A stretch of 64,000 nt of DNA from a virus (taxonomy: Duplodnaviria > Caudoviricetes), in the IMG/VR virus record IMGVR_UViG_3300029798_000001; one strand, written 5' to 3'. The position numbers and the translations under genes were made by a program. Of the stretch, positions 2,644 to 58,528 are shown one piece after another (the stretch's first letter is position 1; each line of letters starts with the position of its first letter). The notes under the pieces were generated by a model. It was not told where the DNA came from. It did no database searches and saw nothing but the letters and a program-made list of their open reading frames with translations.

Positions 2644-4962
2644 ATGACGCAGATTACAGTTGTAAAAAGAAGCGGTGTAAAAGAGCCACTACAGATTGAT
2701 AAGTGGCAAGCCCAAGTTGCTAAGATATGTCAAGGTATTGCCGATGTAAGTCAGTCAATGATTGAGATCAAAGCTCAGTTACATTTTTATAATGGCATCA
2801 CCACAGAAGAGATCGATGGGATTACTCTTCGAGCCATTGTAGATTTAATTGACATCGAAAGCAACCCTGATATTGGTCACACCAATTATCAGTATGTAGC
2901 AGGTAAGCAACGATTGTCCATGCTCCGGAAATCAGTTTATAAAACATACACCCCTCCACATCTTTATGAAATTGTAAAGAAAAATGTAGCCACAGGTCTT
3001 TATACAGATGAACTATTAACATGGTACACCGAAGACGACTGGAATAAAATGAATGACATGCTGGATCACGATAAGGATGAATTATATTCCTATGCTGCGA
3101 TTGAACAGCTGATTGAAAAATATCTTGTCAAGAATCGTGCCACAAAGGAAATATATGAAACCCCACAAATTCGTTACATCATTGCAGCCGCAACTGTGTT
3201 CCATCGAGAAGAACCTAACTCGTCTCGGATGCGCTATATTAAAGAATATTATAATGCCGCATCAGATGGCCTCTTTACTCTTGCTACCCCTGTGCTTGCT
3301 GGTCTGGGGACTCCTACAAAACAGTTTAGTAGTTGTGTGCTTATCCGTAGCGATGACAACCTTGATAGTATTTTCGCATCTGGAGAAATGATGGCCAAGT
3401 ATGCCGCTAAACGAGCCGGCATAGGTCTTGAAATTGGTCGCTTACGTCCATTGGGTGCTCCTATCCGTGGTGGTGAAGTTATGCACACAGGGATGATTCC
3501 ATTCCTTAAAAAGTGGTTTGGTGATTTACGTTCATGTTCACAAGGAGGTATCCGCAATGCAAGTGCTACCGTTTTTTATCCTATTTGGCACTATCAGTTT
3601 GACGATCTTATTGTTCTTAAGAATAATCAAGGAACTGAAGAAACACGAGTAAGATTTATGGACTATGGTGTAGTCCTTAACGCAATGTTCTGGCGTCGCT
3701 TTAAGAACAAAGAACAAATTACATTCTTTGATCCTAATGAAGTGCCGGATCTGTATGAAGCATTTTATACGAACACAGAAAAGTTTGAACAGCTTTATGT
3801 CAAGTATGAAAAGCGCAAAGACCTACGCACCAAGACCATGGCCGCTGAAGATGTGTTCAAAGGTGGCATTCTTAAAGAACGCACAGACACAGGACGTATC
3901 TATCTTGTGTTTGTTGACAATGTCATGAACCAAGGGCCGTTTGATCCTGAATTCCATACCATTTACCAAAGCAATCTCTGCATGGAGATTTTGTTACCTA
4001 CTAAATCGTTTAAGCGATTAGACGATGATGAGGGCAGAATCGCGTTATGCACCTTGGGGTCGCTAAACTGGGGAGCATTTAGAAATCCAGAAGATATGCG
4101 TAGAGCAAATAGAATCTTATTAAGATCACTTAATAACATTCTCGATTATCAAGACTTCCTGTCTATTCAGAGTAAGTTAAGTAATGACGAAATTCGCCCT
4201 ATTGGTATTGGTATTACAAACTTAGCCTATTGGCACGCTAAACGCGGATTAAAATACGGAAGCCCAGAAGCATTAGCTGAAGTTAAAACTTGGACAGAAC
4301 ACCAGGCGTATTACCTGACAGAAGCTACTGTAGAACTTGCTAAAGAGCGTGGTGCTTGCTTACATTCAGAAAAAACACGATATGGGCAAGGAACATTCCC
4401 GTGGGAACTAAGAGCCGCAGGAGTAAACGAACTTACAAACTTTGCCCCTGAGCTTGATTGGGAATCCGTGCGTGAGCAAATGAAACAATATGGAGTTCGT
4501 AATGCTACTGTTATGGCCGTAGCACCTGTAGAATCAAGTAGCGTAGTAATCAACTCAACTAACGGCATTGAGATGCCTATGAGCCTTATTACTGTTAAAG
4601 AGTCAAAAGCAGGATCGCTTATTCAGGTAGCTCCGGAATACAATAAGTTAAAATCAAAATATCAACTTATGTGGGATCAAAAGGACTGTATTGATTATCT
4701 TAAAACCGCGGCTGTTATTGCGGCGTACACCGATCAGAGCCTAAGTACAAATTCGTTCTATAACCCCGCACATTTTTCTGATAGAAAGGTTCCAACCACA
4801 TTGATTGCTAAGAATTTAATGTTAGCTCATAAGTTTGGTTTGAAAACCATGTACTACTCATTAATAAACAAACAGGGTAGTAAAGGCTCTGAGAGCGATG
4901 CTGCAATACACACAGTAGTCAATGATGCCGACGATGAAGAATGTATTGCCTGTAAATTATAG
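2644..4962 (+). CDS. nrdA: Ribonucleotide reductase class Ia alpha subunit with ATP cone
   Basis: VVKRSG ATP cone, TPVLAGLGT, QFSSC, SCSQGGIR, QSNLCMEI, CTLGSLN, C-terminal CxxCKL. Confidence 0.97.
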   Translation: MTQITVVKRSGVKEPLQIDKWQAQVAKICQGIADVSQSMIEIKAQLHFYNGITTEEIDGITLRAIVDLIDIESNPDIGHTNYQYVAGKQRLSMLRKSVYKTYTPPHLYEIVKKNVATGLYTDELLTWYTEDDWNKMNDMLDHDKDELYSYAAIEQLIEKYLVKNRATKEIYETPQIRYIIAAATVFHREEPNSSRMRYIKEYYNAASDGLFTLATPVLAGLGTPTKQFSSCVLIRSDDNLDSIFASGEMMAKYAAKRAGIGLEIGRLRPLGAPIRGGEVMHTGMIPFLKKWFGDLRSCSQGGIRNASATVFYPIWHYQFDDLIVLKNNQGTEETRVRFMDYGVVLNAMFWRRFKNKEQITFFDPNEVPDLYEAFYTNTEKFEQLYVKYEKRKDLRTKTMAAEDVFKGGILKERTDTGRIYLVFVDNVMNQGPFDPEFHTIYQSNLCMEILLPTKSFKRLDDDEGRIALCTLGSLNWGAFRNPEDMRRANRILLRSLNNILDYQDFLSIQSKLSNDEIRPIGIGITNLAYWHAKRGLKYGSPEALAEVKTWTEHQAYYLTEATVELAKERGACLHSEKTRYGQGTFPWELRAAGVNELTNFAPELDWESVREQMKQYGVRNATVMAVAPVESSSVVINSTNGIEMPMSLITVKESKAGSLIQVAPEYNKLKSKYQLMWDQKDCIDYLKTAAVIAAYTDQSLSTNSFYNPAHFSDRKVPTTLIAKNLMLAHKFGLKTMYYSLINKQGSKGSESDAAIHTVVNDADDEECIACKL

Positions 4963-9781: not shown

Positions 9782-9798
9782 ACGGGGTTACCAAAAGG

Positions 9799-39927: not shown

Positions 39928-41019
39928 ATGAAAGACGCAATTATATACGCAGGTTACAGTCGTTTGGCAGATGGCACTATGAAGTTTCGTACTGCTACTA
40001 GTGAAGTTCGTGTTAACCAGTTGGTGGCGTTTGGCGAAGAAGTACACATGATTCTTATCAAAGATGTTTACACCAAGTCTGCGGCGGCCAAAGAATTGCT
40101 CCGCATCAATCATGCAAACGGCGCCAAAGAACTTGAGGCATTTTATGTCGCCCAAGTTCGCGACGAAAACTCTTTCCGTGTAGTTAAACTCAAAGTTCCT
40201 TCTGTGGCCATGCAACAATTAACGGGCGCCAAGATTGAAGAAGAGCCATTGACTGCTAAAGAAGCCCGCAAAATCCGTGCCGAATTTAATCGCAAGGTTA
40301 AAGCGGCCTATGAAGCCAACTAAGGAGTAAGTTATGTCACAAGTAATTAGTACCTGGACCGAATACAAAGACAGCGTTCGCACCATGCCGTTCAAAGAAG
40401 TAGAAGGTCTTTTTGATTCCTACATGAACTGCCCAAGTCGTGGCGTCAAGGACGACATCATCATGAACATTCTTGAAGCTGAAATTGAACGCCGGATTGC
40501 CAATTGGGAGGTTGCTTATGTCTAAATTCCGTGTATATTGTAGCGAAACAGTCAGCTACATGGTTGAGGTAGAAGCCGAGTCGGCAGAAGCCGCCGAAGA
40601 GTTAGTAGCCAGTGGTGAAGTAGATCTTGGCGAGCCCTACGACTGCGCCAACTTTGAAATTGATGAAGTGTTACCTTTGGAGACCGTATAATGCAAGTAG
40701 GAGATCAAGTTCGGGTAGTAGGACAAGACACCACAGGTTCCGTTGTGGAAATGTCTGGTAATAAGGCGGTTATCGACGATGACGCTGCCGAAACCGATGA
40801 CTGTCGTTTAGAATTTCATATCAGTGACCTGGAGACCGTATAATGACAAATCCTATTCCGTTAAATGGTATGTTTGTTACCCCAAATAGTCTTGCTGATC
40901 TGGTCGAAATGATTGACCAAATTGGCACGCCAGAAGAACAGCGTATGGCATGGCTAGGTGCAAGTATGGCCCTAAATCTAGCTCATATGCTACACGAAAA
41001 ATCTTTAATGACGGTGTAA
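39928..41019 (+). CDS. Early array of five small ORFs: 39928-40323, 40334-40525, 40518-40691, 40691-40843, 40843-41019
   Basis: GGAG RBSs and TAATG couplings; the last two are not in the ORF track (50 and 58 aa). Confidence 0.65.
40678..40845 (+). repeat. Perfect 16-bp direct repeat TGGAGACCGTATAATG at 40678-40693 and 40830-40845
   Basis: Read directly from the sequence; flanks the 50-aa ORF. Confidence 0.9.
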
Positions 41020-41042
41020 TGCAAGTGTAATAATATACATAC

Positions 41043-41117
41043 TAAATAGAAATGCGGGCACAAGATAAGGTGTCGCTAGATCCGTAACTAGCACTAAAGA
41101 GCCCTGGCTCTTTTTTT
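41043..41117 (+). ncRNA. Candidate small late-transcribed structured RNA
   Basis: TAAATA, two hairpins (41054-41076, 41075-41092) and terminator AAAGAGC-CCTG-GCTCTTT with T run. Confidence 0.45.
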
Positions 41118-41171
41118 ATGGCGTAATAAAATTGTCATATCTTTTTCTCTGGCATTGCAGTAAATAAGCGT

Positions 41172-57023: not shown

Positions 57024-57052
57024 TTGACTGGAAATTACCGATTTGTTATAAT
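57024..57052 (+). promoter_or_regulatory. Sigma70-type early promoter
   Basis: TTGACT-GGAAATTACCGATTTGT-TATAAT. Confidence 0.85.
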
Positions 57053-57082: not shown

Positions 57083-57947
57083 ATGAAAAATTATCGTTTT
57101 TTAGGTGCAGAAGCCGAAATATTGGGATGCCGCTTGGATTCAGCCCGTCGGGTACTTGCTGGTGCAAAGACACCCTGGGCCAAAAATCATTGGAGTCAAA
57201 CAGTAGAACGATTACTTTTTCAGTGGCGACAACTACCTATCCTACACGATTCTGACGCATTGGTCACTATTATTCCTCGCTGGACTATTGACTACGATTT
57301 TTATGAACTAAGCCGCCCACACGAATATGTAGGTGTGTCAGACCGAGCCTACAATAAATTATTTAGAGAAAGTGTCAACCTGGACGAAAGTTGGGAAAAT
57401 CATAGAGCGGCAAGATTAGCGAGGGCACAATAATGACTGATGAACGTCTCATGGTATGTGAAGCGGTGTTCAATGATCAAATTGGACCCGAACATTTAAC
57501 TCAAGCAGAGATTGACGAGTTTATGGAACTAGTGCTAGATGCAAGTACAGACAAGTTAATGGCTGAAGCTGAACTTCGAGGGTGCAGTGTGTTCGATGGC
57601 ATAGAAGGGAACACAGTTCAATGAATCATCAGTTCGTAGTCATGTGGTGTAATGAAGGATTGGAATATGTGGGCGATGTTACTGCGGAACAGGGTAAAAA
57701 AGCCTGGGCCGCACTTAAAGGTGAAGAACATCGTGGCATGCCAAATCTTCTGCACATGCGACTACGAGCACAGTTTAACAAGGATCGGCACTATGAAATA
57801 TATTTTGTAGACGCAGTAGATGGAATTACCGAAGATGATATCCGCGAAATGTTCCGTGCAAGTCCGCAGACAGCCGCAGATACCATTAGAGAATTAGGAC
57901 AAGTTTTTTATAGTGACCGAGTAGAAGAACGCCCGGTCATAGTATAG
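57083..57947 (+). CDS. Three early ORFs: 57083-57433, 57433-57624, 57621-57947
   Basis: Coupled starts and stops downstream of the promoter. Confidence 0.65.
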
Positions 57948-57949
57948 TT

Positions 57950-58178
57950 TGTGTTCAGGTGACTCTGGGCTAGTGTGATCCACACGATAAGTGGTTTAGT
58001 CAACCACGGATGGTTCTGGTCTAACCTAACCGGCGCTGGCAATGCGTTAACGAGCCCTGTCGTGGAGCGGGTGAATGCTGACTTATTTCTCTGCTGAATC
58101 CGATGGGATAACCAGAGTCGACACCATTGGGGTGTTGAAAAGTTTAGACTATAACTGACCGCCGGGGGCTGAAGAGCA
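57950..58178 (+). ncRNA. Candidate ~230-nt multi-stem non-coding RNA
   Basis: Largest GC-enriched ORF-free gap in the window; long-range GACTCTGG/CCAGAGTC pairing plus at least five local hairpins. Confidence 0.55.
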
Positions 58179-58186
58179 TTTATATT

Positions 58187-58465
58187 ATGAAAAATTATAA
58201 AGTCAAACGATTAACTCGACAGTACAACGGACATACTCGTTTTAAGTATGTTGTCCAACCTGCGACCTTTGATCTACTCACAACAAGACAGCAACTTGTT
58301 GAATGGCGTGAATGGTGTTGGACAACCTGGGGACCCAGCCGTGAGTTATTATGGTCCATCGCAGGCACTCCTGATGCTGTTTGGTCGTGGGATACCGAAC
58401 ACAATAACCGGCGCATATATCTAAAGACCGATGCTGAATTGGTCTTGTTTGAGCTGAAATTTTAG
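58187..58465 (+). CDS. Small protein, distant member of the FxDxxDAxxFKL family
   Basis: WREWCWTTWGP...RIYLKTDAELVLFELKF. Confidence 0.55.
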   Translation: MKNYKVKRLTRQYNGHTRFKYVVQPATFDLLTTRQQLVEWREWCWTTWGPSRELLWSIAGTPDAVWSWDTEHNNRRIYLKTDAELVLFELKF

Positions 58466-58499
58466 GTTAGTACGCACTAACATACAGTTCACCATTCGG

Positions 58500-58528
58500 T
58501 TGACAAAAAATGCCCGATTTGCTATAAT
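58500..58528 (+). promoter_or_regulatory. Sigma70-type early promoter
   Basis: TTGACA-AAAAATGCCCGATTTGC-TATAAT. Confidence 0.85.

Follow-up and report, generated by a model that had tools for sequence, protein, structure and literature searches.

Predicted pseudoknotted RNAs of freshwater jumbo phages form a large family usually found in tRNA gene arrays

The 64,000-nt (64-kb) stretch of phage DNA analysed here, hereafter the window, carries on its + strand what is almost certainly a real structured RNA gene, belonging to a large and undescribed family of freshwater jumbo phages. The gene was matched from end to end by a covariance model, R1 (cmsearch, 226 bits, positions 57946–58182, model positions 1–237), and is the only copy that R1 finds in the window. 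Profile searching gave a total of 165 loci, and over 160 copies are present in contigs from freshwater metagenomes and IMG/VR. A preliminary description of the window had proposed that this site encodes, on the + strand, a non-coding RNA of unrecognised type with several stems and possible pseudoknots, and both the family model and the covariation between its members bear this out. Regarding the role of the RNA, the explanation that on balance best fits the observations as a whole is that of a family RNA which would act in trans and might have a partner linked to tRNA or translation.

The window originates from an uncultured freshwater phage that is present in lake and pond metagenomes and encodes genes with PHROG-type phage functions. 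Its ORFs are packed on the + strand, leaving six gaps of at least 120 nt that lack an ORF of 60 codons or more. One of these, at 57948–58186 (239 nt), extends from the stop codon of ORF 57621–57947 to the ATG at 58187 and contains no conserved reading frame. It had been pointed out as ORF-free and enriched in GC, correctly so, as its GC content is 0.494 compared to 0.404 for the whole window and is the highest among the ORF-free gaps. The longest ORF-free stretch of the window is found at 40692–41171 (480 nt, GC 0.417) and gave no Rfam match at gathering thresholds. Since the gap at 57948–58186 is flanked by two copies of a repeated promoter, it lies inside one transcription unit, which in order comprises a promoter, ORFs 57083–57433, 57433–57624 and 57621–57947, the gap, ORF 58187–58465, a hairpin, and the next promoter. 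The promoter-like site that would drive this unit (57024–57052, +) is of the sigma-70 type, with an 11/12 match and a TG extension, and the next copy (58500–58528, +) has the same GGTTGAC...TATAAT sequence. They are part of a repeat family with 8–10 near-consensus copies on the + strand between 9797 and 61038 (GGTTGACC-N17-TATAAT, with a conserved leader and an RBS after it), which delimit short transcription units and are located at 9797, 10126, 39868, 43142, 48865, 57022, 58498 and 60976, among others. The hairpin at the end of the unit (GTTAGT-ACGC-ACTAAC, 58466–58481, +) lies just 5′ of the next promoter and is found directly 3′ of the RNA in loci L008–L011, L034 and L075. It is without a U-tract and was not called as a terminator; the conserved form GTTAGT-NNNN-ACTAAC may represent either a terminator or a processing site.

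Relatives were collected using the 108-aa protein encoded directly 5′ of the RNA (ORF 57621–57947, +; the anchor), which in a search against metagenome contigs gave 80 loci, 31 of them with the gap sequence 3′ of the anchor gene. L001 and L002, the viral contigs in which relatives of this ORF were first seen, both lack the RNA. Where the RNA was present it retained 70–80% nucleotide identity even when the anchor protein was only 45% identical, and compensatory changes were visible already in a plain alignment of the anchor-linked copies; with RNAalifold, 28 pairs were predicted from 28 copies, and double changes were seen in 19 of these pairs. After two DNA-pattern scans of IMG/VR, R1 located over 110 further copies in its contigs. 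The family members range from 159 to 274 nt in length, and in L148, L278, L241, L237, L252 and L291 an insertion of ~30–50 nt after the third hairpin splits the profile match in two. Five jumbo-phage records of 225–347 kb, four of which are at least 92% complete, hold one copy each. Against GenBank phages, neither megablast nor blastn gave a match for the window region or for two other members, and a pattern scan of a 596-Gb genome contig collection gave at least 120 matches, approximately the number expected by chance, with none of the matches listed fitting the family profile. Literature searches returned no description of the family.

The main alignment (A4) was model-based and contained 93 members, non-redundant at 93% identity. 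Standard base pairs were present in 96.0% of its cells, compared to 33–51% when the 3′ partners were slid by 1–3 columns, and the covariation score was 0.569 against a maximum of 0.082 in the slid controls. Changes on both sides were seen in 22 of the 28 pairs, and none of 500 shuffles reached the observed values. For helices added beyond the 28 model pairs, counts were made by script on the alignment. Single-sequence thermodynamic folding of the window copy gave z = −1.0 on either strand, which is not significant, and the structural evidence is thus comparative and not energetic. On this comparative basis the predicted fold, that of a compact pseudoknotted RNA, is very well supported: it comprises three 5′ hairpins, two further hairpins with near-invariant loops, and two nested long-range helices that close a junction with a replaceable arm (all on the + strand).

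The first of the 5′ hairpins, P1 (57954–58/57965–69), encloses loop L1 (GUGACU, 57959–64) and has a stem of 5–6 bp in 88 of the 93 members (CG 79, UA 9, others). P2 (57973–76/57982–85, loop L2 GAUCC at 57977–81) has four pairs that are canonical in 93, 93, 93 and 91 of the 93 members, with swaps between GC, CG and AU, and P3 (57991–96/58002–07, loop L3 UAGUC at 57997–58001) has inner pairs that are canonical in 90/93 and occur as four pair types. The hairpins proposed earlier at 57973–85 (GTGTG/CACAC) and 57991–58007 (GTGGTT/AACCAC) were hence confirmed by covariation. The loops of P1 and P3 co-vary and are predicted to form a kissing contact, UGACU (57960–64) with AGUCA (57998–58002), and complementary variants of the two are found among the relatives (UGUC/GACA, UAAUCA/UGAUA, UAGC/GCUA, ACG/CGU); the mean Watson-Crick run between the loops was 3.03, versus 2.34 ± 0.08 when each loop was combined with a partner drawn from another member. 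The covariation is compatible with a predicted contact within one molecule and between two molecules alike. Loop L2 is in turn predicted to form a pseudoknot, with UCC (57979–81) pairing with GGA (58008–10): the pair 57979–58010 is CG in 84 members, UA in 8 and UG in 1, with a mismatch in 0/93, and the adjoining pairs are invariant C-G.

The two hairpins that follow have conserved loops. P4 (58016–20/58029–33) shows zero non-canonical cells and as many as five types of pair at a position, and its loop contains a conserved ACC (58024–26) that may pair with GGU (58012–14) or with GAU (58009–11); among these candidate partners, 58011–58024 is UA in 78 members and CG in 4, and 58014–58024 is UA in 74, UG in 4 and CA in 4. 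RNAalifold also extended P4 outwards (58009–14/58035–40), an extension that was rejected, having one-sided changes only and competing with the covarying P5 and L2 pseudoknot. P5 (58034–36/58044–46; 58036–44 is CG in 77, UA in 14 and GC in 2) has a near-invariant 7-nt loop, UGGCAAU, which by analogy of its U1...A5 pattern could adopt a T-loop. Pairing of the UGG of this loop with the CCA of tRNAs was not adopted, since 16 members have an A as the second base of the loop.

The junction is closed by the long-range helix P6 (58053–58/58165–70), each pair of which is canonical in 91–93 of the 93 members with up to five pair types, and by P7 nested within it (58067–70 and 58072 with 58158–62), where 58068–58161 is CG in 72 members, UA in 14 and AU in 3 and the other pairs are invariant G-C. 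P8 (58078–58147) is a variable peripheral arm. Its outer stem (58078–83/58142–47) and P8a (58089–93/58113–17) are supported by covariation within the 17 members sharing the arm type, as are the inner stems P8b (58098–101/58106–09) and P8c (58121–25/58131–35), which verifies the hairpins ATCC/GGAT (58098–109) and ACACC/GGTGT (58121–35) put forward earlier. The three-way arm of the window type, which has an invariant CUGA/AAC internal loop, is found in 14 of the 93 members, in 44 P8 is replaced by a k-turn-like UGAUG...YUGAU arm, and the smallest members (159–178 nt) have a bare hairpin in its place. The RNA ends in an unpaired, near-invariant 3′ tail (58171–58178), GAAGAGCA in the window and GCAGAGCA in the family consensus. 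This tail shares its near-invariance, throughout the 93 members, with the 5′ leader, the loops of P4 and P5 and the strands of the junction. No covarying partner was found for any of them, and the 5′ and 3′ ends of the RNA do not pair with each other, so that a terminal helix like P1 of RNase P RNA is absent.

Other elements of the structure first proposed for the window did not survive the comparison. The columns of the long-range pairings GACTCTGG/CCAGAGTC and TTCAG/CTGAA are mostly unpaired across the 93 relatives; the left halves of both belong to P1 (57954–58/57965–69), and the right half of the former belongs to the stem CUCUG/CAGAG (58089–93/58113–17), i.e. P8a. The two suggested pseudoknots, TAGTC with GACTA and GGGCT with AGCCC, showed no covariation, and AGCCC instead pairs with GGGCU at 58166–70. 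For the hairpin ACGA/TCGT (58050–63) the picture was mixed, as its inner pairs 58051–62 and 58052–61 are conserved while its outer part competes with the covarying long-range helix; in one lake variant a G>T change at 58052 is accompanied by C>G at 58061, and the pair is retained.

The RNA gene is under purifying selection. Contigs from four lake runs contained no variants at 57950–58050 and many in the anchor ORF, and the variants seen in the RNA were concentrated in the P8 loops and junctions. It had been noted that the element might prove to be a decayed ORF, and on examination no frame was conserved across the family. A decayed or unrecognised protein gene would have to correspond to the 40-codon + strand frame at 57975–58097 or to an antisense frame that in the window is free of stop codons over 57930–58200, and some stop-free frame does span the element in 38 of the 93 members. 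However, open frames occur in each of the three antisense phases (9, 10 and 13 of 93, where ~5% would be expected from composition), and the members, whose lengths modulo 3 fall into every class, keep no common reading frame. The substitutions in helices are moreover compensatory, and many copies abut tRNAs on both sides, each of which argues against a coding gene, and we assign this explanation a negligible likelihood.

The usual home of the RNA is a tRNA gene array, in which it fills exactly one slot. A tRNA on the same strand was found within 100 nt in 96 of the 165 loci, often abutting the RNA, although these association counts derive partly from related phages and the loci are therefore not independent events. 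The density of tRNAs at the loci was 12 per 10 kb, with 1674 out of 1674 located on the strand of the RNA. All 71 abutting upstream tRNAs end in an encoded CCA, which is followed without a spacer by the leader of the RNA (mostly GAACGUU), and in 27 loci the next tRNA begins 2–5 nt after the 3′ tail. Downstream neighbours across the family are tRNAs, promoters or unrelated ORFs, and the RNA is also kept after unrelated ORFs and after a 63-aa ORF. The initial view of an RNA embedded in an operon thus holds as far as its position inside a transcription unit is concerned; it is, on the other hand, not an orphan of that operon, being part of a family of more than 160 copies that usually resides in tRNA arrays.

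No tRNA or tmRNA was detected by ARAGORN within the 64-kb window, and the window copy is preceded by the 108-aa anchor ORF. A homolog of the anchor is encoded directly upstream in 36 of the 154 loci that have an upstream ORF, and in this arrangement, of which the window is one case, the RNA starts within ~10 nt of the stop codon and has no adjoining tRNA. Genomes of the anchor type (G001 and G003) have their tRNA arrays ~100 kb away from the RNA, and genomes of the array type (L059/G002 and L049/G004) keep the anchor gene elsewhere. With the RNA found either in the array or after the anchor, and the anchor also found apart from it, the RNA constitutes an autonomous module, one that has changed sites. 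The anchor protein itself is common in freshwater jumbo phages (L003–L082, 45–100% identity). Considered as a possible partner of the RNA, it belongs to no Pfam or PHROG family, and an AlphaFold model of it (pLDDT 82.5) gave no significant match in PDB or AFDB. An assignment as GIY-YIG-like was discarded, the weak matches being unconvincing and the motif residues not conserved.

The RNA was compared to known RNA families. As had been stated from the outset, it is not an RNase P, SRP, tmRNA or group I intron RNA, and no family of Rfam 15 matches it: the window gave no match at gathering thresholds and, at E up to 10, only chance matches outside the element, and ten other members gave only tRNAs and scattered sub-threshold matches, none of them common between members. 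RNase P families did not match any of 11 members at E up to 5–10, and for group I introns there was likewise no Rfam match, the element being found between genes in varied contexts. In the arrays, tRNA and tmRNA calls by ARAGORN adjoin the element and never lie on it, and one weak match to permuted tmRNA (22.7 bits, E 0.62) extends from the element into the neighbouring tRNA. The RNA further resembles T-box riboswitches and RNase P RNA in its pseudoknots, in the k-turn-like arm of about half of the family and in its 7-nt U...A loop. We take G-rich strands such as GGGUGGU, as well as ACCGCC, to recall T-box sequence; in the RNA here, internal pairing takes up the G-rich strands. These are resemblances only, as there is no Rfam match and no terminal P1 helix, and the RNA is not located upstream of aminoacyl-tRNA synthetase genes. 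With the UGAUG...YUGAU arm in mind, a relationship to box C/D-like RNAs was also assessed: the arm is present in the 44 members named above, the window copy having the different CUGA/AAC arm. L7Ae-family, Ro60 (TROVE) and RtcB proteins, looked for as phage-encoded partners of the RNA, were absent from the five phage genomes searched.

The niche occupied by the RNA has precedents, even though its sequence family and fold match nothing described. GOLLD was first seen in lake metagenomes, and GOLLD and ROOL are ~580–800 nt or longer, compared to ~160–270 nt for the RNA here; their Rfam models gave no match at E up to 5–10. They are also merely near tRNAs, whereas the RNA here usually abuts them at 0–5 nt. 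What it shares with them is being phage-encoded, elaborately pseudoknotted and close to tRNA genes, GOLLD and ROOL being phage RNAs often found near tRNA islands that form cages via RNA-RNA contacts (PMC12286853). Similarly, rnaC and rnaD of phage T4 (species 1 and 2) are small stable RNAs whose genes lie in a tRNA cluster of the phage and on the same strand as the tRNAs; the cluster also contains segB, a GIY-YIG homing endonuclease gene. They differ in being 119–139 nt long and in that rnaC ends in a tRNA-like T-arm, which is absent from the RNA here, and a search of the T4 tRNA cluster with the family model and filters off gave only noise (≤4.5 bits). To our knowledge, the function of T4 rnaC/rnaD, GOLLD and ROOL has been unknown for up to 50 years. 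An IMG/VR catalogue by Fremin et al. (2023) lists 8495 candidates of 29–151 nt (mean 67), some of which overlap phage tRNA regions (PMC10690425); judged by their descriptions, none of these is a ~200-nt pseudoknotted RNA of tRNA arrays.

We consider it likely that the RNA is a processed, stable RNA that acts in trans. Its source in most phages would be precursor transcripts of tRNAs, from which it would be excised, with tRNA 3′ trimming and RNase P cleavage setting its ends; as it starts after an encoded CCA and ends 2–5 nt before the next tRNA, tRNA processing would release it. Such a release step draws on established RNase P cleavage and tRNA 3′-end maturation. In the window, transcription from the promoter at 57024 would include the three small ORFs, and the RNA would be released by processing. 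Since the window and 35 further loci have no adjoining tRNA, maturation coupled to tRNAs is not universal. The expression, ends and stability of the RNA are in all cases what we infer. Once released, it would recognise a specific partner through its invariant unpaired nucleotides. In view of the neighbours of the RNA, and of phages that invest in their own tRNAs and tmRNA, we tentatively suggest that this partner could belong to tRNA, translation or anti-defence biology, the latter involving tRNA-directed host nucleases, a proposal that we hold to be somewhat less probable than its opposite. The adjacency to tRNAs may also be merely permissive, representing a highly transcribed site and not a shared function.

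The pseudoknotted core might alternatively be a catalytic centre, with the RNA self-cleaving its precursors or acting in trans on tRNA-like substrates. In complexity, given two tertiary contacts and nested long-range helices, it is comparable to glmS, HDV and the catalytic domains of RNase P; its junction nucleotides are near-invariant, its peripheral arm is dispensable, as seen in many ribozymes, and its neighbours are RNAs needing processing. Yet no ribozyme family of Rfam 15 was matched at E up to 5–10 by any of 11 members, no conserved candidate cleavage site was identified, and the ends in arrays are already accounted for by tRNA processing, making a ribozyme improbable in our view. An equally low likelihood is given to a cis-acting 3′ element without any role in trans, which would shield the upstream mRNA or tRNAs from 3′-to-5′ exonucleases or direct processing or termination. 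Such an element would agree with the start of the RNA within ~10 nt of a stop codon in the window and 35 other loci, with the hairpin and/or next promoter that come after it, and with the failure to find a promoter of its own. A protective block would, however, not require invariant loops, a kissing contact and a pseudoknot, and the RNA is also retained where its neighbours are tRNAs on both sides, an unrelated ORF or the 63-aa ORF, with one copy per 225–347-kb genome despite the many operon ends available.

Cages of the ROOL and GOLLD type, formed via RNA-RNA contacts by RNAs encoded near tRNA islands (PMC12286853), raise the thought of a small RNA-only analogue, in which the RNA would be the unit of a homo-oligomer and the loop-loop contact would be intermolecular. 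The covariation fits a contact between molecules equally well, and the common leader contains a self-complementary AACGUU. Against this, the RNA is 3–4 times smaller than ROOL or GOLLD and not matched by their models, and the window copy is without the AACGUU leader; we view this explanation as quite improbable. A far smaller likelihood still attaches to a riboswitch or leader serving ORF 58187–58465, which could be envisaged since the tail GAAGAG lies ~10 nt 5′ of the ATG of this ORF and could double as a Shine-Dalgarno-like sequence. This 92-aa ORF, which belongs to no Pfam family and gave no relatives when its product was used to scan viral contigs, is strain-variable: it is absent from L005–L007, where the RNA is 99% identical, and from one strain in run X10, and the RNA there runs straight into the promoter. 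Its absence beside near-identical RNAs rules out a dedicated leader, and the downstream neighbours in the family represent no constant gene class.

It is possible, if doubtful, that the family constitutes a new functional class, be it a new ribozyme or an RNA specifically gripping a tRNA, a tRNA-directed enzyme or a defence nuclease. Jumbo phages would then use it alongside the tRNAs that they encode, so as to take translation over or to protect it. The family could in any case open to experiment the question of what phages do with RNAs other than tRNAs in their tRNA arrays. It occurs widely in phage genomes of about 225–350 kb that are nearly complete, its core is well defined and offers two tertiary contacts that can be tested, and its minimal members of ~160–180 nt are of a size suited to crystallography and cryo-EM as well as to chemical probing and mutational scanning. 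Its two natural contexts, in a tRNA array or after a small ORF, separate function from tRNA neighbourhood. A family model is merited for the annotation of phage genomes.

Some further features were observed at loci encoding the RNA. At L039 (2837–3595), a GIY-YIG/NUMOD3-like ORF (2912–3448, weak Pfam matches) is located between a fragment of the RNA and a complete RNA, recalling segB in the tRNA cluster of T4. The 5′ fragment is of one RNA subtype and broken inside loop 2 after GACCC, and the complete RNA is of another, an arrangement that looks like the insertion of a homing endonuclease targeting the RNA gene. Additional conserved spacers are found between the tail of the RNA and the next tRNA, of ~165 nt in L253, L299, L205 and L262 and of ~75–90 nt in L261, L264, L228 and L258. 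These spacers carry long terminal inverted repeats, e.g. TATAGTCAAGCA...TGCTTGACTATA, and are probably further unannotated RNA elements of tRNA arrays. In the same arrays, and apart from the RNA, ARAGORN identified permuted tmRNA genes in L179, L195, L210, L213, L214, L227, L236, L256, L262, L286 and L299, among others.
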